From an uncultured virus (IMG/VR IMGVR_UViG_3300023210_000012) (Duplodnaviria > Heunggongvirae > Uroviricota > Caudoviricetes), in the IMG/VR virus record IMGVR_UViG_3300023210_000012: 56,751 nt of DNA. One strand, 5' to 3'. The position numbers were made by a program, and so were the translations under genes. Below are positions 2,235-52,887 of the stretch, piece by piece. Under the pieces are notes generated by a model that was not told the origin of the DNA, searched no databases, and was given only the letters and a program-made list of their open reading frames with translations. Positions within the stretch are counted from its first letter, which is position 1, and every line of letters begins with the position of its first letter.

Positions 2235-3275
2235 TCACCTCGATAACTTCTCATAGCAGCACCGCATGCTTCGTAGCACGAGAAGGTTGTACTGCTCACG
2301 CTTGGGCTCATTCCACATCGAACCGCCTAGGTGTCCTAGGGCAGCGGCGATCTTCATCTTCAAGTCTTTGAACTTGAGGGCGTCCCGTGAGAGGAAAGTA
2401 CAGACCGTCTCTCGGTAGCCGTCCGGGTCACCTTTGACGTTCTCGGTCTGCAGGATTTTGCGGACCGCATCCCAGTCTTTGTTGATGTATCCCGCAACAA
2501 GTTTGCGGATGTCCGGTGAACCAGTGCTCAGAGCCTCACCAGAGTCATCTGATCCGACGTTGTAGGTGCCGAGGACTACCTTGTCCAAGAGGTTCAGAAG
2601 GTCGCGGACTGACCCCTCGGCACGCATGAACAGGTCGTCCAGCACGGACTCTTCGGGGAGTTCCTTGCCTACGTCAGCCATCACCTGCTCGATCAGAGAG
2701 TTGGCCTGAGACCTCGTCACTCTCCTAAAGTTGATCTTGTTGCACCGGCCCAATAAGGTTCGTTTAAGTCCTTTTTTGTTAGTCGTGCAGAGGAAGATTT
2801 TGATGTGCTCGGGCGGCTCCTCTAGAACCTTATTGAGAAGCTCTTGTGCTGCGGGCGTAATCTGCTGCGCTTCATCGAAGATGTAAATCTTCGTGCCCTT
2901 ACCAGGCTGAAGCTGTCCACCGTACTGTCGGAACCCAGGCGTGATCGCTCGCATAGCTTCGATGCCACGAACGTCTGCTCCGTTGATCTCCATGTAGTCG
3001 TTACTGGACTCCATTGCCTTGCACGGAGTGCATTGGAGGCACGGCTTCTCGGCCTCTGTCGAACTGCAGACCGTGGCCCTGGCGATGATCCTAGCCAGCG
3101 TAGTTTTTCCGCACCCCGTCAACCCCTCAAACAGGTAAACCTGTGAGGCATTTGGGTCTGTGAGGATGTTCTTGGCCTCTTTGACCGGGAAGGTCGGGCA
3201 GATTTCACTGAGTCTCTGCGGCCTATACCGAGTCTTAAGGTCACCTTCGCCGCGAGCTTTGATCTTGAATGCCAT
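2235..3275 (-). CDS. dnaX: DNA polymerase III gamma/tau-like clamp loader AAA+ subunit
   Basis: RYRPQ motif, Walker A GLTGCGKTT, Cys4 cluster, Walker B FDEAQ, LCTTN, GRC at the SRC arginine-finger position. Confidence 0.88.
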   Translation of the reverse strand: MAFKIKARGEGDLKTRYRPQRLSEICPTFPVKEAKNILTDPNASQVYLFEGLTGCGKTTLARIIARATVCSSTEAEKPCLQCTPCKAMESSNDYMEINGADVRGIEAMRAITPGFRQYGGQLQPGKGTKIYIFDEAQQITPAAQELLNKVLEEPPEHIKIFLCTTNKKGLKRTLLGRCNKINFRRVTRSQANSLIEQVMADVGKELPEESVLDDLFMRAEGSVRDLLNLLDKVVLGTYNVGSDDSGEALSTGSPDIRKLVAGYINKDWDAVRKILQTENVKGDPDGYRETVCTFLSRDALKFKDLKMKIAAALGHLGGSMWNEPKREQYNLLVLRSMRCCYEKLSR

Positions 3276-3303
3276 ATAAGGTTCTACCCGAATGAGCGGT
3301 AAC

Positions 3304-3334
3304 GAAAGAAAGAGGACCCATTAGGCCCTCTTTC
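3304..3334 (-). terminator. Probable intrinsic terminator downstream of nrdJ
   Basis: Stem GAAAGAGG (3308-3315) / CCTCTTTC (3327-3334), followed by TTTCGTT on the minus strand. Confidence 0.5.
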
Positions 3335-3364
3335 CTTCCCTGCTCACCTCCGGTTGGGACCAAG

Positions 3365-6300
3365 CTACGGGAGAGCTTGCTCCGTGGATCCGAACGAGAC
3401 GGTGCACTGATCGCCGTCACAGTACTTCGGTGTCGCGTCGATGTCGTGTCCGATTCCAGTGAAGCTGGTTGAACTGAGTTTAGCCGCAGCTTCTTTGTAG
3501 GTGTCCACATCGATCGTGATGTATGGCGCCTGCTCATACCCATGATCGTTCAATGGGAGGAAGGACACCGTCTTGAGTCGACTCTCATAGAGCTCCAGGC
3601 AGCGCTGAACGTCGTCGCCCTCTTCGGGCTTAAACGAGACAGTGATGGAGACACTGTTGTCAGACCAATACTTCTGTAGCTTGGCCGCGTTTTCCATTTG
3701 CTCCCAGATGGAAACATCGGACTTGCCGCGCTCAAAGAGCTCGGCTTTGATGGGGAAGTAGATGACCGAAGTGCGGCCCGACTTGTCGTAGACGTCTTGC
3801 TCCACGCGATACCCAGCATTGCGGTATTCCTCCACTAGAGGGCTGTGAGCCGCAATCCGCACCGTACGGAAGTAGTATTCCGCGTGTTCGTAATGGATAC
3901 CAGGCGTGACTCCAGGTAGCAGCGATGTAGTCCCTGCGGGCTTGACCGTGGTGGTCTTGATGGATTTGCGAATGCAAAGCCATTCCGAGTAGAGCCGATC
4001 CGTCTTTTGGATGTAGTTGTAGCCCCGATCGCACCACTCGAAGTGCCGACGGCGCCCGTGGCGCTTGAAGCTCTGGACGATCCCAGACTGGCTCACACCT
4101 ATCCGCCGGTTGCGGAGCGTGACCATGTTGGTCTTGGGGTTATGCGTCGGGATAAGGGACACCGTCTTCGCGTAGAGGTAAGCGAACTTGAGGGTTCGCT
4201 CGAATTCCTCGTAGGAGGCGTGACGTGATGGGAAGGTCTCAACCAGGTTGCAGAGTTCGTTACTCTCCAAACTGATCTCGGCGCATGGGTTGAACCCGAG
4301 GACGCGGCTGTCCTCGCGAAGCTCGCCCATACGACCATACTTCCGGGCGTTATCCATCCACATGTAGCCCGGCTCACCGGCCTTAGCTGCGATTGCGGCC
4401 GTCTCGGTGTAGTCCATGCCGACATCAGCGAAGATTGAGTTGTTGGACGCCCACCGGTGGCTCTTCATGGCCTCTGAGTTGACCTTTGGGTTCTTAAGGT
4501 TGAGGAACTCGGTGTCGTCCTTCTCGCCGAACATGATAATTGCGGTCCGACGGACGTTACCAGCGACCACACAGACGCCCACAAGGTCGCACAGATCAAC
4601 GATCGCCTCAGAAGTGATCGGTTGGTCAATCAGGGCATTCAAGATGCGCTGCACCTCCTCAATGAGGCGAATCAGCGGATCCGGCCCGGACGCTGTCCCG
4701 CCGAAGCCTTTGATGAGAGCCCCGTAAGGGCGGACCTTGCTGTAGTCGATGGACTTGGGAAGTGAGCCGTTGCCGACGTATGCCTCCAGGATGCGGAAGA
4801 GTAGATCGACCCACCCTTCGCGGGTATCCGCGACGACGTGGACGTCATCACCTTGGACTGGTCGCTGAATGACAACCTTGCCAGCGCCACGGCAATCACT
4901 CCCGACGCCGACGCCGAGCATAGAAAAGTCCATGAGGTAGCAGAAGGGCTCTGCGAAGGCGAGGTCGATCTCGTTGGTGCTGACGAACGCGCAGTTACCA
5001 GTCAGGATGTTATCCGCCAGCGCAAAGGCCCCGTAACCATCTACGGTAGCACAGAAGACCTCTTCGACAGCGTTGGTCTTCTGCACATCAGACACGGTCC
5101 AATACCTAGATGAGGCATCGGAATTGGCGGCGAAGTTGCGCCGGTGTTCATCGACTAGGAAGAATTTCTCGCTCAACGTATCTCGCATGAGTGTCAGGCG
5201 ATACATGGTTGATTCTCTGCCCGTCAGGTTTGACTCTCTAGTCTGCTCAGAGATGGAGTAGCTCCCCACGCCGAGGACGGCGCACACATCTTTCACGAAG
5301 AGGATGTTTTCGCGGATGCTGCTCGACAGCGATACCTGACCCTGCTTGCTTACATTCCCATCAGCCGCGAGATAACCGGCCAACCAGCCGAAGAGGAAGG
5401 CCTTGTTCTCCCGAATCGATGGCAATTCCCGGAAACTATTGGGGATCCCAGCTACTCTGATCGCCCCGCCATCGGACACCTCGGGGGCGTCGGTAACTGC
5501 ACAATGTGAGAAGAACTTAGCCAACTGTTCATCCTTCTCACCGCAGAGGTACAAGCAGTTAGCATTTCGTTCACCGGGAATGGTGGTGCCATCTCCGAAA
5601 GCGATTCCGTGCGCGATGCCGAACGCCGATGGCTTGACGTTCTTGATCCCCTGCCCAAAGACATACTGGAGGCGATGAACCTCGGGCCGGAGGTTCTCGG
5701 TCGTGAACTCCGAGTGTCCCTTGTCCCGGTGCGCCTGTCGTCGATCCTTGGCAAACCAGCGATGGTCGGGAGTGGCGTAGATCTCCTTCTCCGCGCCTTG
5801 ACGCCTCAGCGTTACCCTCATCAGTTTCTGGTGTCCAAATGACCGAACTGGAGCGTCGACCCACTTGCCGCCCCGCGTCAGCAGCGTCTGGACTGTCCCT
5901 GCACAGTCACCGATCTTCTTGATCCCGTCAGCGGTGATGATCTCCGTGTTGTATCCGAGGCAGTTGTTGAGCGCAGCTGACCCGTGCTTTTCCACGTAGT
6001 CGGTGCCCATCATCCACAGCCCACGACCGCCAGGGAGGAACTTGAAGTCCCACATGAGCTCGAACATTATCTGGGCGCTGCGCTGGGCCTTGGAATCGAG
6101 CCACGGCAGGTTGAGGCGGAGGCAATGCGCCTTCTGGACCGTGTAAACGCCGTTGACGATTCGCTCTAGGCACTGCCAGAACTCTTCCGTCTCCAGGTTG
6201 TCCTCGCTGAGGGGACGTGCGTAAGTCCTTTTGAACGTGAACTTTCCGACTGGACCCCACTCAGGCTCTTGTCCCTCAAACTTAGCCAGGAACTCCGGGG

Positions 6301-6385
6301 CTAGCTTGAAGCGGTCACTGTCTCGGATGTTGAGCACGGGGCGTTGAACGGCGTTTGAATAGTAGGATTTGGTCCCGAAATCCAT
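3365..6385 (-). CDS. nrdJ: Class II (adenosylcobalamin-dependent) ribonucleotide reductase, RTPR-like, interrupted by an intein
   Basis: FKRTYAR, PGGRGLW, NNCAF (split by the intein), GNVRRTA, FNPCAEI active-site loop, TVKPAGT, C-terminal CDGDQC. Confidence 0.93.
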   Translation of the reverse strand: MDFGTKSYYSNAVQRPVLNIRDSDRFKLAPEFLAKFEGQEPEWGPVGKFTFKRTYARPLSEDNLETEEFWQCLERIVNGVYTVQKAHCLRLNLPWLDSKAQRSAQIMFELMWDFKFLPGGRGLWMMGTDYVEKHGSAALNNCLGYNTEIITADGIKKIGDCAGTVQTLLTRGGKWVDAPVRSFGHQKLMRVTLRRQGAEKEIYATPDHRWFAKDRRQAHRDKGHSEFTTENLRPEVHRLQYVFGQGIKNVKPSAFGIAHGIAFGDGTTIPGERNANCLYLCGEKDEQLAKFFSHCAVTDAPEVSDGGAIRVAGIPNSFRELPSIRENKAFLFGWLAGYLAADGNVSKQGQVSLSSSIRENILFVKDVCAVLGVGSYSISEQTRESNLTGRESTMYRLTLMRDTLSEKFFLVDEHRRNFAANSDASSRYWTVSDVQKTNAVEEVFCATVDGYGAFALADNILTGNCAFVSTNEIDLAFAEPFCYLMDFSMLGVGVGSDCRGAGKVVIQRPVQGDDVHVVADTREGWVDLLFRILEAYVGNGSLPKSIDYSKVRPYGALIKGFGGTASGPDPLIRLIEEVQRILNALIDQPITSEAIVDLCDLVGVCVVAGNVRRTAIIMFGEKDDTEFLNLKNPKVNSEAMKSHRWASNNSIFADVGMDYTETAAIAAKAGEPGYMWMDNARKYGRMGELREDSRVLGFNPCAEISLESNELCNLVETFPSRHASYEEFERTLKFAYLYAKTVSLIPTHNPKTNMVTLRNRRIGVSQSGIVQSFKRHGRRRHFEWCDRGYNYIQKTDRLYSEWLCIRKSIKTTTVKPAGTTSLLPGVTPGIHYEHAEYYFRTVRIAAHSPLVEEYRNAGYRVEQDVYDKSGRTSVIYFPIKAELFERGKSDVSIWEQMENAAKLQKYWSDNSVSITVSFKPEEGDDVQRCLELYESRLKTVSFLPLNDHGYEQAPYITIDVDTYKEAAAKLSSTSFTGIGHDIDATPKYCDGDQCTVSFGSTEQALP
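4994..5962 (-). mobile_element. Intein (323 aa) with LAGLIDADG homing endonuclease in nrdJ
   Basis: Starts CLGYNTEI, block B ATPDHRW, motifs GIAFGDG and LAGYLAADG, ends LTGN before extein Cys. Confidence 0.92.
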
Positions 6386-29367: not shown

Positions 29368-29574
29368 ATGCACCTCCAGCGCAACTTCGTATGGACTCTG
29401 GACCTGAGCGATAGGGAGCTCAAGGTCATCATCAAGTGCCTGGAAGGGGGAACAGGCCTCGACGCGGCTGAGGTGAGCCTAGCTAAGAAGTTGGCTGACG
29501 CCATTCCCGGAATGGCCTCACGTCTTGAGCGTGTGAGCAGCGGAAAGCGACGTCGACACACCAAGTCTGACTGA
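29368..29574 (+). CDS. Hypothetical protein
   Basis: 68-aa ORF ending just before a terminator hairpin. Confidence 0.5.
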   Translation: MHLQRNFVWTLDLSDRELKVIIKCLEGGTGLDAAEVSLAKKLADAIPGMASRLERVSSGKRRRHTKSD

Positions 29575-29575
29575 T

Positions 29576-29606
29576 GAAAAAGAGCGCCCACTAGGGGCGC
29601 TATCTT
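29576..29606. terminator. Intrinsic terminator, T-tract on the minus strand
   Basis: Stem AGCGCCC (29583-29589) / GGGCGCT (29595-29601) with AAAAAG on the left. Confidence 0.65.
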
Positions 29607-29631
29607 CCAATTGGGTCTAGATACGGGGCGT

Positions 29632-30759
29632 CTAGTTGACGACCAGTTCCACGACTATCTTCTTGGCGTAGTAGTTGATGAGGCTATGACTCACGCCTAG
29701 TTCTTCTGCCAGCTGCTTCTGATTCAACCCTGCAGCGAGCTTCGCTGGAATAGACGCGATCTGCTCTTTAGTGAGCTTCGCGTTGCCGTGCTTCTTGATG
29801 AGATTCGGCAGGTCCCAACTCTCACCACGAAGTACACGAGATATCTGGGTAGGAGTCACGCCATAATCTGCGGCCAGGCGCTTCCCGGTTACTCGCTTCC
29901 CTGAGTCCAATCCCTCTTGATACCGCGCACGGATCCTCGTGACCTGCTGGTAATCCAGCTTCGACATCCCGTGCTTGGCGCCGCGAACCCGGCACTCAGG
30001 CTTAGTGTATGCGCCGTTTTGCGGCCCGCGTGCGGCTCGACTAGGATCCCTCCGCATGGGATGGCTCTCACCTCGTAGAACCTTCTCCGGATGCCTACGC
30101 GTCCAGTGGTCATCGCCAGTGGGCGCCGTCTGACCACCAGAGGCATCGTTTGCAAGAAGGTTCAATCCTATTGAACTAATGTGCTCGACTTCGAGCTTGA
30201 GCGCTTTGGACTCGGTGAGGTTCTCGGCGATCCTATGCTCAACGGGCTTGAGACCGGCCGCAAGTAGCTTGCGGATGATCGCGAACTTGTGCCCCTTCTT
30301 CCCGGACTTAGCCTTCCGGATGTGAGCGTCAACTCGTGGTTGCTGACGATCTGACCCCTTGCCCACGTAGAACACATTGTCGGTGTCTGGCCGGATCAGT
30401 TCGTAGACGTAGTAGACCTCTGCTTTGTCCAAATATGGCGAGTTGGGATCGGTTTTCTGGTGGACACGAGGCCGAGTGGACCCGTAACGGGAGAGCTGAA
30501 CTCCGTGCTGTTCCCGTAGCTCGTTCACCAGCTTCTTAGCTGCATTTACGTGCAGATTCTCGGCGATAGCTAGGTAGCACAAACTAAGGCCTTGTTCGAC
30601 CAAGCGTCTGACCACTAAATGACGTTTGCTGTTACCGCCACGCCTTGTATCCGACAAAAGCCTGTTGAGCGCGTATCGGCCGTTTCCAGACTGCTTCTCT
30701 CGGCCAACGTAAATTACTGCGCCATCAATTGGATTCTTGATAACTACGACTCTGTACAT
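29632..30759 (-). CDS. Free-standing GIY-YIG homing endonuclease with NUMOD/HTH DNA-binding repeats
   Basis: YYVYELIRP...FYVGKG, a second degenerate N-terminal GIY-YIG, RGESHP and RGAKHGMSKL repeats, C-terminal HTH. Confidence 0.85.
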   Translation of the reverse strand: MYRVVVIKNPIDGAVIYVGREKQSGNGRYALNRLLSDTRRGGNSKRHLVVRRLVEQGLSLCYLAIAENLHVNAAKKLVNELREQHGVQLSRYGSTRPRVHQKTDPNSPYLDKAEVYYVYELIRPDTDNVFYVGKGSDRQQPRVDAHIRKAKSGKKGHKFAIIRKLLAAGLKPVEHRIAENLTESKALKLEVEHISSIGLNLLANDASGGQTAPTGDDHWTRRHPEKVLRGESHPMRRDPSRAARGPQNGAYTKPECRVRGAKHGMSKLDYQQVTRIRARYQEGLDSGKRVTGKRLAADYGVTPTQISRVLRGESWDLPNLIKKHGNAKLTKEQIASIPAKLAAGLNQKQLAEELGVSHSLINYYAKKIVVELVVN

Positions 30760-30763
30760 GGAA

Positions 30764-30802
30764 TTGCGGGCTCCTGGGTTTGTATCCCAGACTAGCCCGC
30801 AA
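30764..30802 (-). promoter_or_regulatory. RBS-sequestering hairpin upstream of the GIY-YIG gene
   Basis: TTGCGGGCT/AGCCCGCAA and CTGGG/CCCAG stems enclose AGGAG (30771-30775). Confidence 0.6.
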
Positions 30803-30834
30803 CTATGCCCGAATCAAGGTAGAAACCTAAGTCT

Positions 30835-31317
30835 CTAGTTGACAACGAGTTCCACGACTATCTCCTCGACAGCGAGGGTGATCTCCTGGATGGCGACGTC
30901 GGAGCTCGAAGCGTCCTTGTCACCGGTCGGCTTGACAGAGGTCGGGAAGACCTCCTTGAGCTGAATGACCTTCGAGGGACTACCGTCAATGCCCCATTCG
31001 TCGGCAATGTGGTATTCCTGGATCGTGATGTCAGAACGGTAGGTCTCACCGCCGTTGATGCACTTGAAGATCCAGAGGAGGAAGTCGGAGTCCTTCTTGA
31101 CCACGCCCTTGCTCAGGGAGCAATCACCGACCTTCGGAATGCCAGGATACTTTCGGGTGTACTTGAACACGCCCTCACGGTACTCCGCCATGTCGACGGT
31201 GAGGTCGGGGATGCTGGCGGTCCGGAAGCCTGCAACTGGGTCCAGGTTCTGACCCGCCGGGTCGACAACGTGAAACCGGAAGTTGTGATAGAGGTCTGTG
31301 TCAACTGCTCTAGCCAT
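30835..31317 (-). CDS. Tail tube protein (T4 gp19-like), paralog 1
   Basis: NFRFHV, EYREG...RKYPG, LSKGV, DASSSDVAIQEITLAVE. Confidence 0.9.
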   Translation of the reverse strand: MARAVDTDLYHNFRFHVVDPAGQNLDPVAGFRTASIPDLTVDMAEYREGVFKYTRKYPGIPKVGDCSLSKGVVKKDSDFLLWIFKCINGGETYRSDITIQEYHIADEWGIDGSPSKVIQLKEVFPTSVKPTGDKDASSSDVAIQEITLAVEEIVVELVVN

Positions 31318-31342: not shown

Positions 31343-32176
31343 TTAAAAAAGGCGAACGCCTGATCCCTTTAGGACGCGAGCGTCCCAAATCTCGAACGGA
31401 ATGTGGGGATACTGTTGGCAGAAGAGTTCGATTTTCTCCTGCTGCCCAGTGGGCCACCATCGGCCCTTGACGTCCACAACAGCCTCCAGCTCTCCGCACG
31501 TTGCGTAGATCCAAAAGTCTGGCGTGTAGGTGGCGACACCATCATCTACGATGACTGTGTATTTAGCTTTTTCGTAGTCCCAAGACTTCCCAAGCAGGTC
31601 CAAATGCTGGGCAACTCGTAGCTCCCAGAGAGACTTGAATGTGAAGGCGCGACCGCAGTCATCAGTCCACGTGTGGAAGCCAGGGCGTTTCCTAATCTTC
31701 GCTCCCATACGCCTGAGCTCGACGAGAATGCGCTTGTGGAAGACGTCAAAGTCTTCAGCAATAGCGCCTGCCGTCTCTCCGGCCTCATACCGATTCTTAA
31801 CGCTCTGCAGCTCAGTCGCAGAAAGCTCTCGCTTTTTGTAGCGCGTTTGGGTTCCCGTCCTTTTCAGGATCGAGGAGATCGCTGACTGGCTTGTATTCCA
31901 GGTTCGGGCTAATCCGACCTGAGTCTCGCCCTCCAGGTAAGCATCAATGATCTGGTCTTCTTGATCGTCCGTCCATCGCCGGTTTCGACAGCCAGTCACA
32001 TCGCGGCACACGCCTGCGGTATGGAGTACCTTGTAGACCTGGTCAACTCCTACATCAAACTGCAGAGCGATTTTAGGACCAGATAGGCCGAGCTCATAGA
32101 GACGCACCGCTTCGGTCCGCTGCTTGGAATCCAAGCTGCGGCGCCGCTTGCGCTGCTTCTCAACTGCTCTGGCCAT
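31343..32176 (-). CDS. Putative free-standing endonuclease: three HTH repeats plus a PD-(D/E)XK nuclease domain
   Basis: Repeats LYELGLS, AYLEGET, RYEAGET; FKSLWE...YE...YTPDF...DVKG. Confidence 0.8.
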   Translation of the reverse strand: MARAVEKQRKRRRSLDSKQRTEAVRLYELGLSGPKIALQFDVGVDQVYKVLHTAGVCRDVTGCRNRRWTDDQEDQIIDAYLEGETQVGLARTWNTSQSAISSILKRTGTQTRYKKRELSATELQSVKNRYEAGETAGAIAEDFDVFHKRILVELRRMGAKIRKRPGFHTWTDDCGRAFTFKSLWELRVAQHLDLLGKSWDYEKAKYTVIVDDGVATYTPDFWIYATCGELEAVVDVKGRWWPTGQQEKIELFCQQYPHIPFEIWDARVLKGSGVRLF

Positions 32177-32777: not shown

Positions 32778-33318
32778 GCGGTTTATGGACTATGGCTGTA
32801 AGGTATTAAAGGGCGCATCAGAGGTAAGTACCGCGAGCAGGGGGCCAAGGGCGTTGGCAACAGACAGGCGACTTTTGTTCATCGAAGCTCTTCGCAGATC
32901 GTCTAACAAACCGGCGAGGCGTCGTCGCGGGTCTGCTCGTTGCTATGGTCCCCCATGTGAGATTCCAGATTGCACGGGCCGCACCGTCGGAAACAAACCT
33001 TACTGTCTCGATCATGTAGTAATGATGCCCTATGCAGCCAAGATACAACGTCGGGAGGAAGCACGCGAGGAGGAGATCATAACTACGACACCTCCTATCG
33101 ACGGTTATGTAGCCCAAGACCTACTCGGTGCGATCCAACTTAATCAGTCATCAATCCCGGCGCTCTCTAGGGATCTACGCGTTCCACATGATGTAGTGGA
33201 GTGGCTCGTATACAGATTGGTGGACGCAAAGATAGTCACCATTCGCCGGTCGAAGCGGAGCGTATACGTTAAGTTGGTTCCGAAAGCAGTTCCACGACCA
33301 TCGGGAGGATCTCTCTAG
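32767..33318 (+). CDS. Hypothetical protein with a Cys/His zinc motif and winged-helix-like C-terminus (start uncertain)
   Basis: CEIPDC...YCLDH; SIPALSRDLRV...LVYRL. Confidence 0.5.
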   Translation: MRFMRFMDYGCKVLKGASEVSTASRGPRALATDRRLLFIEALRRSSNKPARRRRGSARCYGPPCEIPDCTGRTVGNKPYCLDHVVMMPYAAKIQRREEAREEEIITTTPPIDGYVAQDLLGAIQLNQSSIPALSRDLRVPHDVVEWLVYRLVDAKIVTIRRSKRSVYVKLVPKAVPRPSGGSL

Positions 33319-33550
33319 TAAACCACTCGCCACGGTGGTGCCACCTACTGAACAGCCTGTGAAGCTGGAGCTCTGTTGTCCCCGCCGCTTGATCCGCGAT
33401 AACGGAACCAAGAAGTCGTAACTGGCAATCAGATCCCGTCTGAAGCGCAACTACGCGAGCGTTAACCGAGCTTGTCGTGAACCCCACTTTGATGCGGCCC
33501 GTCTCAGTATTTTCTATGAAATAGACCTTGGTTCTAGTATGAGAGGGCAT
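33269..33550 (-). CDS. GIY-YIG (T5orf172/MUG113-like) domain protein
   Basis: VYFI...IKVGFT...LQTG...LHRLF...RGEWF. Confidence 0.8.
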   Translation of the reverse strand: MPSHTRTKVYFIENTETGRIKVGFTTSSVNARVVALQTGSDCQLRLLGSVIADQAAGTTELQLHRLFSRWHHRGEWFTREILPMVVELLSEPT

Positions 33551-46677: not shown

Positions 46678-47793
46678 ATGCAGAAAGTGCTTCCACTTAG
46701 GATTGCCAACGACGCTGATCTTATGGCAACAATTGAGTCATTCAGACTCATCCAAGAGCGCGTGTCTGAGATTGCGTTTGAAGACGGAACCGCGCTTTCC
46801 GCAGTAGATATGCATCAGCTCAGCTACGCAAAAGTGAAAGGCTCTCTGAAATCTCAGCTCACATGCACTGCTATTCGATCGGTGGCATCTGAATACTCAC
46901 GCGCTCGGAGGAGAAACCGGAGGATATATGGGCCGATTCACTTCAGTAAGCCACGCGCCCTATTCTTGATCGGCAAGGCAAAGCGCGATGCCTGCCCACC
47001 CCGTAAAGAGACGATCAGAATTTGGACAATTGCGGGCCGTAAGGACATACCTTGCAGCATTCCAGCCCGGTTCGAGGCTGACTATAAAAACGTGAAGTCC
47101 TTCGACACACTCGCGGTCTCCCTTAAAAGGGGACGACTCGTAGCGACCGTGTCCGTGACTCTTAAAGAATCAAAACGAGAAGGAACCCTTCCTGCTGGCG
47201 TTGCAGTAGGGAGTAAGAATGAAGTAGCAGCGGTAAGCGCCGAGGGGAAATCTCTCCGAATCGTCACCGTTGCTCAGAATGTAATGGAGGAGACAAGCCG
47301 AAAAACAAAGAGAAGACTTGAGCGGCGACTGGCTGTGCGTAAGGCAGATGGACTTGAGACGCGTTCTGTGCGTCGAGTCCTCAAACGGCTAAGCAGACGG
47401 CGTCACATGCGAACTAGGACTTTTTGCCACGCAGCAGCTAACCGACTCGTTGAGTGGGTTGGAAGCGGATCAATCCTCGTCATCGAGGACCTTCGCATCC
47501 CTCCACCTTCGAAGAGGAAAAGAAGCAAGCCATCGATGAGGCCGCACTTCTATGAAGTGCTTCGTCGTAGGATTGAAGAGAAGGCTGCGGCTGCGGCGAT
47601 ACCGGTTTATTACGTGAACGTATCCGGTAACGAGAAGAGGTGCTCGCTTTGTGGAGCTTCTGGGAGCATCACAAAACACACCTTCCTCTGCGATTCGTGT
47701 GGCAACGAAAGTCCGATGAGCAAGAATGCCGCGCTCAATGTCAGGAACAAATTTACGGTCACCAGGCCGTGGGCTGCTGTTAACCGGCCTTGA
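46678..47793 (+). CDS. tnpB: TnpB (IS200/IS605) family protein, predicted nuclease-dead (TldR-like)
   Basis: RuvC-I GVAVG (D to A176), RuvC-II LVIEDL intact, CSLC/CDSC zinc finger, RuvC-III SKNAALNV (D to S348). Confidence 0.85.
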   Translation: MQKVLPLRIANDADLMATIESFRLIQERVSEIAFEDGTALSAVDMHQLSYAKVKGSLKSQLTCTAIRSVASEYSRARRRNRRIYGPIHFSKPRALFLIGKAKRDACPPRKETIRIWTIAGRKDIPCSIPARFEADYKNVKSFDTLAVSLKRGRLVATVSVTLKESKREGTLPAGVAVGSKNEVAAVSAEGKSLRIVTVAQNVMEETSRKTKRRLERRLAVRKADGLETRSVRRVLKRLSRRRHMRTRTFCHAAANRLVEWVGSGSILVIEDLRIPPPSKRKRSKPSMRPHFYEVLRRRIEEKAAAAAIPVYYVNVSGNEKRCSLCGASGSITKHTFLCDSCGNESPMSKNAALNVRNKFTVTRPWAAVNRP

Positions 47794-47851: not shown

Positions 47852-48540
47852 TGCTGCTTGTCAAAGTTCTTGGCAAACAGTTCAAGCGCCTCTTTACCGA
47901 ATCCAGAGGAGTTCATAATTCTGTCTCCCTCTGTTTCGAGTCGGTTCCAGATTGGCAGACGTGGGAACCCTCCGAGGCCATACTCCATTCGGAGGGCTAA
48001 AAACGGGACATCCGCCAATGTGCGGCCGTTTATGACGGCTAGTTCATTCGGCTGGATAGGCCTCCTAAGCCTGCTCAACGCCGTCTTTAGCTCGGTCGCA
48101 TTCGATCGATGTCGTCTTCGGTGGAAATCAGTCTCGGACTCAGAAGCTGGTCTAACGATCAACTCTGTAGTGATTCCATCTTTTACTGACGGGAGCGTGT
48201 CAACGGTCCACGGGTTCTCTGTGGCCATTAGCAGCGCCACATCATCACCACCGGTGAGCCACAATAAAGTAGTGTCGGCTTCGAGATCGCCGTAGTTCAG
48301 TTCGATGATCTTCGCTACTACATCATACTCATCTGGGCTAATCTCATCCAACTGGATGCTGTCTCGGTAGATGTCGTACCAACCGCCATCATTAGGGATC
48401 ATATCCCTAACACGTTGTGCCGTTTTTTCAGCCAGCTCTCTAAGAGAGTTCCGCCCTGCCTCTTTAGCAGCCGCAGGAATGCTCGTCTTCAAGTTTTCGA
48501 TGCTCTTGCGAAGCTCTTCGTCATCGACGAAGAATTTCAC
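47848..48540 (-). CDS. Putative neck / head-tail morphogenesis protein
   Basis: Overlaps the portal stop; ALRMEYG...PIW resembles HK97 gp10-like proteins. Confidence 0.5.
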   Translation of the reverse strand: MKFFVDDEELRKSIENLKTSIPAAAKEAGRNSLRELAEKTAQRVRDMIPNDGGWYDIYRDSIQLDEISPDEYDVVAKIIELNYGDLEADTTLLWLTGGDDVALLMATENPWTVDTLPSVKDGITTELIVRPASESETDFHRRRHRSNATELKTALSRLRRPIQPNELAVINGRTLADVPFLALRMEYGLGGFPRLPIWNRLETEGDRIMNSSGFGKEALELFAKNFDKQQ

Positions 48541-50816
48541 TTAATGCGACGTCGTCGATGACCGCCGCCCTGAGGGGCTGAGATCAGACCGCCGTTCCCG
48601 TTCCGGGAGAATGCGGCGTGCTTGAACTCGCGGAAGAATTGCTGTTGATGGGCGAGCTGTGCGGCCATCTGCTTATTACCGACAATGACCTTGTGCATTG
48701 TGTCTTGAATCTCTTGATCACGCTGCCGGGACATGCGATCACGTTTTTCCTCAATGCGCCGCGCCCTATCGTAAGACTTCCACTCCGACTTACTGTCTGG
48801 TCGACCCCCAGAGCCCGGTGGTGGGCCGATCTCAGCGTTTCCTGGGTGCATTGGAGCGTCATCTGGCGGAGAACCATCAGCAGCAGGAGCGCCGCCACCA
48901 CCGCCATCATCACCTCCGCCCATAGCCTGTTGCTGAGCAGCTTCCTTCTTTTGATCCTCTTCCCGCTCCTTCTCGATCCGCTCTATCTGATCGCCGGTCA
49001 GTTTGAGAATCTTCTCCTGGATATAGCGCATTGAGACAAACGGCTGGACTCGCGTTGCGAAGTCAGCTCTCGCGTTCTTGATCTCGTTGTGCGCCAGCTC
49101 ATAGATCCCGGACGGGACCGTCATCATCACCTGAAGGTCTTGCCTGAAGGGGTTGATCCCTCGGGCCGCAAGATCGATCTGAATCAGACGACGAATGCTG
49201 TTCCTGACCTCGCGCTGGATTCCCATCGTGACGCGTGCGGACCGCACATCCTCGTAAGAGAGGATCGATCGGGCTGGGATGCCGTCGTCTTGCCCTAGAT
49301 AGTTCCTGGGGATCTTCAGGACGCCGTGTAGCTTCCGCTGGAAGTACTCCACATCCTCGGTCGCCTGATAGTCAGGGCCTTGGAGAACCTCTACACGGGC
49401 TAGCTCGCGATTTTCGCGGACCGCGATGAAGAAGTCCTGAAGGTTGTCCATCGGATTCATACGCATGTCGAGGCGCTGGGTCCTCGGGTTAACAAGTTTC
49501 TGCTTCCGCAGGTCTTGCTTGGCTTTGCGTAGGAAGGACTCCACCTTGTCAGATGGAATATCGGTGACGTCGATGTAGAAGGCGAACCGGGCTGGAGCTC
49601 GGGTCAGCTTGTAGATGAGCATCGAGTCTTCGAGAAGAACCAGTCTCTTCCAGATCCAGCGAGCTCCATCAGCCACACCGAACCCGTATGGAGTTCTGCG
49701 GGCCGTGCCACGAAGGCGCGTATGTAGGACTTGCCACTCCTCGAACAGGGCGACGTGGTCCGGGACCTTAGCCTGACCGGCCAGCATCCCGCGAAGGTCC
49801 GAGGCGTCCTGCGTGAACTTCCCAGTGATGTCCTGGACGTAACCAATGATCGAGCCATTGGACTGCTCGACACGGCGCATGGTGGGGCAGGGAAGAGAGT
49901 TGAGGCCGACAACGCCGTTATCAGTGATCAGCACCTCCTCGTAGTTATTGCCCATCTTCACGGTCGTGTAGACCATGGACCAGATATCGTCTTCAATTCG
50001 TAGCCGCTTGTTGAGCAGCACGTCCGACATGCTCTTGATAGCTTCGTCGCTAGAATGGACCCAAACGGTTTTTCCGGTGTCAATATCCGGCTGGGTCGCA
50101 TCGTTTGTGAAGTAGTGGTGGGCGCTGTTATGGACAACAATCCCATTAGCGATGAAGTTGTGGGTCTTAGTTGTGACGTCGTAGACGTCTTCGACCCCAG
50201 CCGGAATCGCGGCCTGGGTCACCTTCAATCGGCCTGATGTTGAGTGCAGAAAGGCGGTCATTCCTGTTGGGTCAAACCCAGACCAACAAGAGACCACAAC
50301 CGTTCCCTCGACTAGATCAGAGGCATTGATGTAATCGTGCTCGACCGTGAGGAACTTGTGCCCAGGGGTGCACTTGATTTTCTCACCATTGCTAAACCCG
50401 ACCTCAACCACCTCCTGCTTATCGCCAGAAATGCGAGGATTCTCAGACGCCACTACGACGAGCTTGTCCTTCTCTGTGTCGTAGGCCAGGATCTTGGGGC
50501 CACCGCCGTGAGCAGCTAGGTCGTGGATCCTAGTGGGCTTGATAATGGAGTCTTCAACCACGTAAATCGTAGTATCTGCAGTGAGACAGTTGATGTCCGG
50601 ATAATCATCCATCTGCTCATAATCTGCATACCTGTCCATCAGGTTCTGCGAGACGCTGAGTAGTCCGCCGACGTCTTCTCGGCCCCATACCGAGAAGATG
50701 GATGACGGGATGTGCTTCTCGGCCTCGGCCGAGGGAGATTCAGCCCGATCACGCTCGGCGCGTTCACGGCCGAATACCTGGCGCAGGTAGTTTAGCGCAT
50801 CGTCGCGAAGTGCCAT
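48537..50816 (-). CDS. Portal protein (T4 gp20-like) with a mini-intein
   Basis: WKRLVLLEDSMLIYKLTRAPARFAFYIDV, EDVEYFQRKL...LKIPRNYL. Confidence 0.92.
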   Translation of the reverse strand: MALRDDALNYLRQVFGRERAERDRAESPSAEAEKHIPSSIFSVWGREDVGGLLSVSQNLMDRYADYEQMDDYPDINCLTADTTIYVVEDSIIKPTRIHDLAAHGGGPKILAYDTEKDKLVVVASENPRISGDKQEVVEVGFSNGEKIKCTPGHKFLTVEHDYINASDLVEGTVVVSCWSGFDPTGMTAFLHSTSGRLKVTQAAIPAGVEDVYDVTTKTHNFIANGIVVHNSAHHYFTNDATQPDIDTGKTVWVHSSDEAIKSMSDVLLNKRLRIEDDIWSMVYTTVKMGNNYEEVLITDNGVVGLNSLPCPTMRRVEQSNGSIIGYVQDITGKFTQDASDLRGMLAGQAKVPDHVALFEEWQVLHTRLRGTARRTPYGFGVADGARWIWKRLVLLEDSMLIYKLTRAPARFAFYIDVTDIPSDKVESFLRKAKQDLRKQKLVNPRTQRLDMRMNPMDNLQDFFIAVRENRELARVEVLQGPDYQATEDVEYFQRKLHGVLKIPRNYLGQDDGIPARSILSYEDVRSARVTMGIQREVRNSIRRLIQIDLAARGINPFRQDLQVMMTVPSGIYELAHNEIKNARADFATRVQPFVSMRYIQEKILKLTGDQIERIEKEREEDQKKEAAQQQAMGGGDDGGGGGAPAADGSPPDDAPMHPGNAEIGPPPGSGGRPDSKSEWKSYDRARRIEEKRDRMSRQRDQEIQDTMHKVIVGNKQMAAQLAHQQQFFREFKHAAFSRNGNGGLISAPQGGGHRRRRIK
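50127..50588 (-). mobile_element. Mini-intein (154 aa, no endonuclease) in the portal
   Basis: CLTADT start, CTPGHKF block B, VYDVT...HNFIANGIVVHN end, +1 Ser. Confidence 0.92.
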
Positions 50817-50857
50817 CTTAGTCCCATGGTTTCAACAGTTAGCTCGATCCTACTCTA

Positions 50858-51586
50858 TCAGGCCGGGAGGTCCAGGAACACACCGGATATGGACAACGAG
50901 CCCATAGTTCGGACAGATGCGGTAAAAACTTCGTCTAGCCGACCAGGCGTAGATCGCACCACCTTGTGGTTGGTCTTCTTCTTTGGTTTGACGATTTCAG
51001 CCATCAATGGGCTGGCAGCAGCACACTCGTTGAAGAGCGCGTCCGCTGCGCCTACCGTCTTGACAGCGATGTTCTTGTGGGACCTCTTGGCCTTCTGTGC
51101 GTCGAAGTATATCCGGAGATTATCTGGGTGATAGTTTTCTCTGTTCCCATCGATGTGCTCAACGTAGGTGCCCTTTTCTAGGGCATGGCCAAGCACCCAT
51201 TCCGCCATAAGTCTAGATATTTTCTTTTTTACAGCGTGTCCTGGGATCTGATAGGTCGGATAGCCGTTCGCGTTTTTGGCTAAGTAAAGCGGCAGAAGCG
51301 AATCCCCAGGACTCAGCTCCGGGGGCATCTTCGTGGAGCCATTTTTGAGAATGAACTGTGAGGAGGGGGACACTTTAACGAGTGAGCCATCATCAAGTTC
51401 AACATCGAAAATCTGTTGTTCGCCGATTGACCGGAAGTCAAACGCCTCAGTTACGAAGAGGCGTGAACCAGTCCACGTCAGCACCACCACAGAAAAATCT
51501 GGGTTTAGGACAGTCTTATTGGCTAAAACGCCGATTTGGACCGGTCCAGAGGCTGTTTCGATCTGCATCTCAGAGAGAAGGCCCAT
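50858..51586 (-). CDS. Free-standing degenerate intein-like (Hint) protein with an internal HNH motif
   Basis: Hint-like blocks without C1, block B His or terminal HN; HIDGNRENYHPDNL. Confidence 0.72.
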   Translation of the reverse strand: MGLLSEMQIETASGPVQIGVLANKTVLNPDFSVVVLTWTGSRLFVTEAFDFRSIGEQQIFDVELDDGSLVKVSPSSQFILKNGSTKMPPELSPGDSLLPLYLAKNANGYPTYQIPGHAVKKKISRLMAEWVLGHALEKGTYVEHIDGNRENYHPDNLRIYFDAQKAKRSHKNIAVKTVGAADALFNECAAASPLMAEIVKPKKKTNHKVVRSTPGRLDEVFTASVRTMGSLSISGVFLDLPA

Positions 51587-51594
51587 GTTCCTAC

Positions 51595-52887
51595 CTACCG
51601 TCCAGCAAGCAGTAGTGGCTCCCGGACAAGTTCTTCAGCTTGGGTGGTGCGGATCATTGATTCGATTCCAACCGAATCTATTACCGTTACTCGACGTGCA
51701 CTAATGATCATCCGCAAAGGATTTGATCCGATGAATTTCCTAGCTGAACCCTTTTTCATATAGGCCACAGTCAAATGCGGCACGTAATCTGGGTGCGTCG
51801 GCGGTCTAGTATTTGGGAGTTTTTTGATCTGCGCGTGTAGAGTTGGCAGAGGATCGCCGATCAGCTCAAAATAGAGGATGTCCTTATCCTCGTGCTCGAA
51901 TACGTTGAGCGACCCAAGCATCATCCTTAATGACCGACCATGCCCTCCGATGATCTTTTGGATCTGAGCTAGGTCTCGCCTATCGGCCCCGTAATAAAGT
52001 GTCGCGTGAGGTCGCTCCTCTAACTTGATTACATCACTACTAGACAGGCGCTTGCGGACCCAATCGCCTAATTTCCAACGCAAGTAGTAGAAGTCCACCT
52101 GCAGCTGGAGAAAATTCGGATCTGATCGAGCTTCTCCGGGGCCGGGAACGTGTCGAACCAGTGCTATGTCCTCGGACATCTCTTCATGGCGAAGGTTCTG
52201 AACCAGGGACAAGAACACTTTCTTGACCATAGACCCAGACCGGCGAATCTCTCGGCCAGCTCGACCTCGCCCAAGGATTATGTCCGCTCCTACTTCAGCG
52301 AACGCCTCAGACGGGTTTGCGTTGGAGTAGTCACTAGGGAACGAATCGCTCATCTTTTTGGTCGTGAGCCAGTTGCGAAACACCCCTAAGTCATCCCCAA
52401 AGTGCTTCTGAAAGAAGAACCAGAGACTAGAACGCTCAGGATTGGATTTGACGGTCCTGGTCAGAGCATCGGCCATATCTCCATCGATCGGCTTACCAAT
52501 CGAATTGCAGATTAAGCCCCAAATTTTATGTGACTCTTTGGTGAGCTGCTTCGCCCAGATGCGGTGCAACGTCTCGTGGATAATTACCCACAGCACATCT
52601 GGGGCGCTTCTGACCGGTGGGTGGAAGATGACTGTTGAGTCGGTGCCCGGCGTGTAGCGACCATTCGCCTTCTCATCGCCTTTTCTGGCGACAAGTTTGA
52701 TTGGACCGCCAAAGTCCTTATCAGAGAGCCCGAACGATCTCAGCTTCTCGGTTGCTATATAAACTGAATCAAAAAACTCAGCAACAGCCTCAGGGCATAC
52801 ATCATCATCAGCGCTAGGCTTTAGGGGCCCATTTGCTGTTCTTGTCCCTGAGGGGAGCAGTCGAAAACCGGAGATAAGACGGTCCAC
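51595..52887 (-). CDS. Zinc metallopeptidase-like domain fused to an Acb1/gp57B-like 2H phosphoesterase
   Basis: IHETLH and SDYSNANPSEAFAE; RPHATLYYG and DYVPHLTVAY. Confidence 0.75.
   Translation of the reverse strand: MDRLISGFRLLPSGTRTANGPLKPSADDDVCPEAVAEFFDSVYIATEKLRSFGLSDKDFGGPIKLVARKGDEKANGRYTPGTDSTVIFHPPVRSAPDVLWVIIHETLHRIWAKQLTKESHKIWGLICNSIGKPIDGDMADALTRTVKSNPERSSLWFFFQKHFGDDLGVFRNWLTTKKMSDSFPSDYSNANPSEAFAEVGADIILGRGRAGREIRRSGSMVKKVFLSLVQNLRHEEMSEDIALVRHVPGPGEARSDPNFLQLQVDFYYLRWKLGDWVRKRLSSSDVIKLEERPHATLYYGADRRDLAQIQKIIGGHGRSLRMMLGSLNVFEHEDKDILYFELIGDPLPTLHAQIKKLPNTRPPTHPDYVPHLTVAYMKKGSARKFIGSNPLRMIISARRVTVIDSVGIESMIRTTQAEELVREPLLLAGR

Follow-up and report, generated by a model that had tools for sequence, protein, structure and literature searches.

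A free-standing GIY-YIG endonuclease that probably homes into a phage tail tube gene by replacing the end of the gene

Homing nucleases that settle in a host gene by replacing one of its ends have been described in yeasts and in fungal mitochondria. In Torulaspora and Lachancea yeasts, the WHO elements are intron-free homing units that combine the 3′ part of a host gene with a nuclease, and both the replacement and the resistance of the element to its own nuclease are experimentally supported (PMC7282813; bioRxiv 10.64898/2026.08.13.744650). According to the sections of these reports cited here, old gene ends are pushed downstream and start at about one position, the duplicated fragment is proposed to act as a second homology arm, the carried 3′ part is highly diverged, and successive invasions nest. 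The WHO nuclease is an intein-like LAGLIDADG protein with a zinc finger, and about 400 bp of the nuclear FBA1 gene are replaced. In fungal mitochondria, mobile endonuclease ORFs (mORFs) have been reported at atp6, atp9, cox2 and nad3 of Glomus (PMC3630166), at atp6 and cox2 of Phlebia and rps3 of Ophiostoma (PMC4019555), and at atp6 of Allomyces (Paquin 1994, as cited in PMC3630166 and PMC4019555). In the cited parts of these papers, a C-terminal segment of foreign origin comes with the nuclease ORF, the native segment is left stranded downstream, and in Glomus atp9 the nuclease is of the GIY-YIG type. A C-terminal duplication around an intron-less nuclease ORF characterises these mORFs.

Phage homing nucleases offer further points of comparison. 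The T4 seg and mob genes, known for intronless homing, encode, like I-TevI, a GIY-YIG domain followed by DNA-binding modules, and in the passages of PMC2988022 cited here, I-TevI has a 38-bp site and cuts 23-25 nt upstream of its insertion point, whereas T4 seg nucleases cleave hundreds to thousands of bases from their gene. The same passages describe, for I-TevI, SegB and the MobE of Aeh1, a hairpin that covers the ribosome-binding site and contains a promoter, a layout that blocks translation from read-through transcripts. The homing genes of ICP1 and other phages, which encode nucleases of the GIY-YIG superfamily, lie beside essential or structural genes, vary in their presence and swap domains (PMC10448857). 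The cited passages do not mention gene-end duplication for T4 seg (PMC2988022) or terminal replacement for ICP1 and the other phages (PMC10448857), and the phage case is not mentioned in the sections used of PMC2988022, PMC10448857, PMC2248197, PMC12724721 and PMC3029335. A literature search, mainly of open-access texts, found no phage description of gene-end replacement.

The locus described here is probably a phage variant of this scheme, and since the principle is known from yeasts and fungal mitochondria, the surprise is limited. It lies in a stretch of 56,751 nucleotides (the window) that is part of a 134.7-kb virus record with Gp23 capsid, sheath, tube and polymerase genes. Two minus-strand ORFs, encoding the tail tube protein and a GIY-YIG endonuclease, both end in IVVELVVN-stop, and positions 29632-29660 match 30835-30863 at 27 of 29 bases; we call the copy in the tube gene T and the copy at the nuclease end D (Table 1). 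The two differences, CTC/CTG (Leu) and GTT/GTC (Val), are synonymous. The number of pairs in the window expected by chance to reach at least 27/29 is about 3e-5; six such pairs occur, and the five others lie within repeated gene stretches or a short tandem repeat. Between 28000 and 33500, a scan from which about four terminator-like sites were expected by chance found only one, at 29583-29601, past copy D. The shared end, the number of matching bases, the synonymous mismatches and the terminator after the endonuclease copy had all been pointed out in an earlier note made from the letters alone, and all were reproduced.

Table 1. Features of the tube locus: feature, position in the window, strand, and basis or remark.
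Tail tube gene, T4 gp19 family, 160 aa	30835..31317	-	PF06841 E 2.9e-17; PHROG 4542 tail tube; gene that carries the two inserts
Copy T, present tube 3′ end, 8 codons + stop, working copy	30835..30863	-	Repeat
Copy D, displaced tube end = last 8 residues + stop of the nuclease, in frame	29632..29660	-	Repeat
Inferred element-borne replacement tract, last 14 tube codons	30835..30879	-	Clear in relatives, weak in the window allele
Intrinsic terminator	29575..29601	-	After copy D; also behind the stop of the tube gene in empty L029; region folds, z -3.7
Endonuclease, 375 aa	29632..30759	-	GIY-YIG-like N-terminal repeat, GIY-YIG domain ~116-205, linker, two HTH modules, tube-derived tail
Candidate sigma-70-like promoter, two hexamers, 17-nt spacing	30789..30817	-	Spacer pattern
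Predicted RNA hairpin over the nuclease ribosome-binding site	30756..30808	-	z -4.8
Second, unrelated nuclease ORF, HTH + PD-(D/E)XK-like, 277 aa	31343..32176	-	PF02796 above cut-off, PF05367 weak
Captured original tube 5′ end (MARAV)	32160..32176	-	16/17 nt identical to tube start
Present tube 5′ end, behind new leader from upstream insert	31301..31317	-	Sequence comparison

Comparison of related loci makes it quite likely that a free-standing homing element of the GIY-YIG type is at work here, aimed at the last tube codons, and that it exchanges the gene end rather than being spliced out. Like a WHO element, it would be an intron-free unit of nuclease and host-gene 3′ part that carries, at family level, a diverged replacement end. 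Old ends start at about one position (copy D begins directly after the Glu-Glu codons in 5 of 8 pairs), the duplicated fragment could serve as a second homology arm, and invasions appear to have nested at one locus. Unlike the WHO elements, this one joins a GIY-YIG domain to HTH modules, with LAGLIDADG and zinc-finger domains absent from the nuclease, and it affects 8-14 codons of a phage structural gene, the old end often being fused in frame. With the mORFs the locus shares the C-terminal duplication around an intron-less nuclease ORF. The mORFs differ in their mitochondrial host and longer segments, and mirror 5′-end capture and hairpin control are not mentioned in the cited parts of those reports. 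Because protein family and host differ, the element belongs to neither group. The cut proposed here, some 30-45 nt ahead of the point of insertion, would lie nearer to the distance given for I-TevI than to that of seg, and the copy boundary hints at a near cut. A ribozyme core around the nuclease ORF, as in a mobile group I intron, is absent, and unlike an IS element with target-site duplication, the locus has no transposase, no inverted ends and no identical repeats.

One comparison is with an empty allele, L029, from a related phage of another population, whose tube is 96% identical to that of the window (37 of 134 body codons differ) and has the nuclease on neither side. Its tube stop runs directly into the sequence that follows copy D in the window (57/65 aligned bases through the terminator, 110/145 overall); no useful alignment was obtained between this post-stop sequence and the window sequence after copy T. 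Because the L029 stop joins the post-D sequence directly, the insert is 1,203 bp bounded by the repeat, and it comprises a spacer and an intact GIY-YIG/HTH endonuclease gene. The earlier note had predicted this junction of tube gene, 29632 copy and terminator, and its claim of an intron-free insertion into the last tube codons is supported by the junction and by the lack of any Rfam intron in the window, which also rules out an intron around the nuclease gene. Misassembly, which the earlier note had raised as the danger to its reading, was looked for and is not supported: a contig from run X5, not flagged as a possible source, covers 29493-31164 and both copies with zero differences, and L028 and L001, which may come from the same sample as the window, differ from it at 0 and 1 positions over 6.5 and 8.5 kb.

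Among sequencing runs, those that match best come from seawater or are marine metagenomes. No tube homologue was found among 50,697 phage records in a search of named phages, a bacterial genome collection gave no tube matches and only partial HTH matches to the nuclease, and there was no RNA dataset among the 20 runs listed. In contigs from four runs, from which rare variants are lost, we found no joint that skips the element and no empty allele. Run X4 contains a minor contig corresponding to 29794-30183 (depth 4 versus 24-29) with a diverged variant of the nuclease linker, and a second allele of the element may co-occur there.

The nuclease has the features of a GIY-YIG homing endonuclease: a domain with Arg, Glu and Asn, separate C-terminal DNA-binding modules, and occupied and empty alleles at one site. 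Its LEM-3-like GIY-YIG domain is above the curated cut-off (PF22945, E 4e-9, 37.2 bits against 27), as are HTH_3 and HTH_23, and a structure model places helical modules at residues 270-374. The Y/G motif, Arg142, Glu183, Glu190 and Asn204 are invariant in 16 nuclease homologues, and Arg, Glu and Asn are the residue types named for I-TevI in the cited part of PMC2988022. A fold search gave nothing at E ≤ 0.001; the weaker matches include the GIY-YIG domains of I-TevI and UvrC. Residues 1-85 have their fold elements in the same order as the catalytic domain, to which they align at 27%, are poorly conserved and are missing in three homologues, and they are probably an inactive GIY-YIG-like repeat. 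The ends of these proteins vary: among the 16 close homologues, six end in the exact six-residue tube tail (of four tube types), one does so partly and nine do not; the junctions are of the AKK-, RRE-, PP- and stop-separated types; and in L027, a stop stands just before the gene-end copy, whose peptide is still conserved with 7 synonymous changes. The in-frame fusion is optional, since the tail is missing in nine of the 16 homologues and L027 has a stop before the copy, and the earlier note's view of the fusion as part of the mechanism is not supported.

The spacer may control when the nuclease is made. A promoter-like pattern, chosen after the loci had been seen, is present in 8/9 nuclease-bearing spacers and in 0/7 spacers of empty or scarred loci, against a background of 0.015 per spacer; a consensus promoter scan did not call the candidate in the window. 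The predicted hairpin overlaps this motif, all seven spacers of relatives fold (z -2.8 to -8.5), and nine pairs are 100% paired in five distinct sequences, four of them changed on both sides. By analogy with the T4 layout described above, the hairpin would block nuclease translation from read-through transcripts.

We surveyed 54 distinct tube loci with a stop codon. A related nuclease lies directly downstream in nine: six have a gene-end copy, two (L005 and L041) have none, and one is cut by the contig end. Among the other 45, two have a copy, 23 and 52 nt downstream, and 43 have none. The two nuclease-free copies appear to be scars, and in one of them, L031, the bases between the copies are the start of the element's spacer, so this locus can be read as a deletion scar. 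In the tube tree, occupied, scarred and empty alleles are interleaved, and presence is patchy among close tubes; all six full-length viral nuclease matches stand behind a tube gene. Trees of the tube body and of the nuclease are mostly unresolved, with no supported conflict, and their resolution is too low to reveal horizontal transfer. In L039, a nuclease relative (38%) lies downstream of the second tube paralogue rather than the first (2612-3427).

L035 holds a nested arrangement. Taken with the next eight bases, its copy D agrees at 33 of 35 positions with L031, where the tube end meets the spacer, but at 20 of 35 with its own copy T. Around 1666-1980, this locus contains nested relics: nuclease, a small ORF, the displaced end of the other lineage, a spacer start and a C-terminal nuclease remnant. 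In our reading, a second element has apparently invaded an occupied allele and pushed the older end downstream.

Codon composition bears on which of the two copies is foreign. In ten occupied or scarred loci, G+C at third positions drops from 0.84 (through codon -7) to about 0.5 at codon -6 and beyond (201/240 upstream, 19/40 in codons -6 to -3, 45/79 in the last eight), whereas in 28 distant loci it stays at 0.76-0.86 (577/672, 87/112 and 171/224); the nuclease gene has 0.63, and six close empty alleles also dip, to 0.71. The loci compared are related and the P values overstate the case; L033 and L039 (near-duplicates of L035 and L038), L034 (AT-rich throughout), L049 and L056 (anchor misplaced), and L072, L074, L077, L081 and L082 were left out. 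Because the drop falls there in occupied and scarred loci, about 14 last codons would seem to travel with the element. The nesting in L035 and the shift in composition thus support, at family level, an upstream copy that is element-borne and a downstream copy that is displaced, and the re-invasion together with the element-like last 14 codons fits the replacement model for the family.

For the window allele alone, the picture is less clear. Relative to L029, it differs at 7 of 14 tract codons (37/134 in the body) and at four of the last eight (P 0.12, not significantly above the gene body), so that its tube end does not appear clearly recoded relative to the empty allele; the last 14 codons of L030 differ from those of L029 at ten positions, against 38/134 in the body. 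In the window element, copy T has five codons common to the T of L005, the spacer end is L005-like, the nuclease N-terminus is 63% identical to that of L005 and 40% to that of L030, and the HTH part is 98% identical to that of L030. That T, spacer end and N-terminal domain are all L005-like fits a linkage of T to the front of the element. Copy D differs between the window and L030 at 6/27 bases, with only 19 differences in the preceding 360 nt (P 0.005), which argues that the D of the window has been replaced or converted. Within genomes, the two copies differ at 2/27 in the window and 0/27 in L030, compared with 6/27 between orthologous copies. Simple homing would not predict this likeness; it would need conversion between the copies, or loss via the repeats followed by re-invasion. 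The earlier note's proposal that the element supplied a replacement 3′ end is supported for the family and is weak for the window allele taken alone, and its proposal that the nuclease ends on the displaced original end is supported for the family too, with the qualification that D in the window is not pristine.

The loci display empty, occupied, scarred and re-invaded alleles at one site, an intact catalytic motif and a conserved left edge of D, and from these a mechanism can be proposed. The mobile unit would consist of about 14 last tube codons with their stop, the spacer with its promoter and translation-blocking hairpin, and the nuclease gene. During co-infection, the nuclease would cut the empty allele at the conserved Glu-Glu codons or a short way upstream of them; the left broken end would be repaired on the donor tube gene, copying the donor end and the nuclease, and the right broken end would anneal to copy D, a built-in second homology arm. 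The recipient's own tube end would thereby be stranded downstream, and the in-frame fusion would merely follow from the way the junction forms, providing the nuclease with a stop codon.

How the element escapes its own nuclease can be pictured in two ways. With some confidence, we suggest that the carried end protects because its sequence departs from that of sensitive empty alleles. Hints in favour of resistance by allele sequence are the apparent re-invasion of L035 and the high variability of residue 154, which ranks second among the 160 residues across 22 close tubes. Protection by breaking a site that spans the stop codon is possible given the 38-bp site of I-TevI and its cut 23-25 nt upstream, and we think it rather doubtful. 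The two mismatches between T and D, which the earlier note had taken as protective recoding, do not appear to play this role: L030 has an intact nuclease and copies that agree at 27/27, and T and D of the window each differ from L029 at 4/27.

Other readings of a repeat around a nuclease gene have to be weighed against this one. If the repeat arose by target-site duplication or by integration of the Campbell type, each insertion would have doubled about 29 bp of recipient sequence and supplied nothing foreign, which would suit the near-identical copies within L030 (27/27) and the window (25/27), and the capsid and polymerase repeats described below, also of 26-27 nt, which differ by at most one base before the stop. 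We nevertheless consider it very improbable: T and D differ at 12, 9 and 8 of 27 bases in L002, L035 and L027 and at 4/21 in L040, the displaced copy of L035 comes from another lineage, the foreign composition reaches six codons upstream of the repeat, inverted ends are absent, and no transposase or integrase domain was found above cut-off. One could also imagine a single old accident, in which a nuclease that cuts elsewhere, in the manner of T4 seg, or nowhere landed once, and the repeat was inherited and kept alike by conversion. The identities of tube and nuclease are indeed roughly parallel in some pairs, the trees are without supported conflict, and T4 free-standing nucleases do cut far away in the cited part of PMC2988022. 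Patchy presence among close tubes, several junction types, displaced tails that follow different tube lineages and the nested re-invasion leave this idea little chance of being right.

The tube tail on the nuclease might instead be functional and dock the enzyme into the virion or on the tail tube. The window, L030 and L002 all have the tail IVVELVVN despite base differences at 5-6/27 positions, all synonymous, and the exact tube tail recurs in six of the 16 close homologues; nevertheless, nine of these lack it, the peptide of L027 is conserved beyond a stop, which renewal of the copies from working tube genes would explain, and the tail is only 8 residues long, so that we find this explanation hardly credible.

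Homing by replacement of the gene end remains the preferred reading, and the tube gene seems to have met a similar fate at its other end. An upstream insert of 859 bp, which L029 lacks (its tube leader agrees at 58/75 with the sequence that precedes 32176), holds a nuclease ORF that begins with the tube's native leader, ribosome-binding site and first five codons; it appears to be a mirror 5′-end replacement. The upstream element is present and the GIY-YIG element absent in L032, and distant relatives repeat the capture pattern with MARAAS and MARAAAT. Relatives of the upstream nuclease also precede the second tube paralogue and start with its first codons, intact in L011 (2826-3677) and truncated in L005 (6120-6372). 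An ORF-less group I intron (Rfam RF00028) stands after tube codon 11 in L002 (3689-3965) and L005 (3688-3964), where collaborative homing with the free-standing upstream nuclease is possible, and the tube gene of L041 is interrupted after codon 16.

When 134 ORFs of the genome were scanned, two more genes turned out to have end copies. The major capsid gene end, 8 codons plus stop, is repeated 2,084 bp downstream (G000:C1 127646-129730; L085 3647-5731), with 26/27 bases alike before the last base and a similar terminator-like hairpin after each copy; the repeat encloses two HNH-type ORFs, one by Pfam and the other by eye, and a capsid relative, L088, lacks the insert and has downstream sequence that matches the post-copy region at 47/60. 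The DNA polymerase gene end is repeated 1,012 bp downstream (G000:C1 28354-29366; L084 6355-7367), enclosing a 249-aa Cys/His-rich ORF, with a nuclease-like His-rich end by eye, and a 67-aa ORF. Polymerase relatives were not found in the viral scan, and two of five records searched had one: the same nuclease lies downstream in L102, where the next 1.5 kb hold no copy, and L100 has neither. The earlier note mentions neither the capsid and polymerase repeats nor the mirror element at the tube 5′ end. Among more distant GIY-YIG-like phage ORFs, generality is low: 64 of 80 loci entered the test (5 had already been analysed and 11 near contig starts were left out), 51 were testable, and two had a copy, one of them the L027 tube locus again (as L108) and the other L121, with 0 in the opposite-strand control. 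In L121, from another virus, an unrelated GIY-YIG ORF ends by repeating, in recoded form, the final 11 codons of the upstream gene (2045-2923).

It is tempting, at somewhat less than even odds, to regard terminus replacement as a third way, general in scope and additional to introns and inteins, for homing nucleases to settle in essential phage genes. In this phage group it would be used by unrelated folds (GIY-YIG, PD-(D/E)XK-like and HNH-like) at both tube ends and at the capsid and polymerase ends, with stranded arms of about 27 nt, and it would drive an arms race like that of WHO elements, in which the final residues of virion proteins are rewritten again and again. If so, the ends of phage structural genes would be horizontally exchanged pieces shaped by nuclease conflict, and short terminal repeats would offer a way to find homing elements and their targets. 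For the tube gene, a selfish nuclease could occupy an essential virion gene without splicing, and the empty, occupied, scarred and re-invaded alleles provide natural material for a direct test, with the cut predicted within a few codons.

Other ORFs of the record may also be of interest. At 33269-33550 (minus strand), 1.1 kb upstream of the locus, lies a 93-aa ORF of the MUG113/T5orf172 family (GIY-YIG superfamily). A 371-aa ORF at 46678-47793 (plus strand), opposite in strand within the structural region, has a start that, we presume, resembles a TnpB/OrfB-type nuclease. Finally, the reductase-like, portal-region and polymerase ORFs at 3365-6385 and 48537-52887 of the window and at 1418-6355 of L084 are long or split by eye, which suggests inteins or introns.
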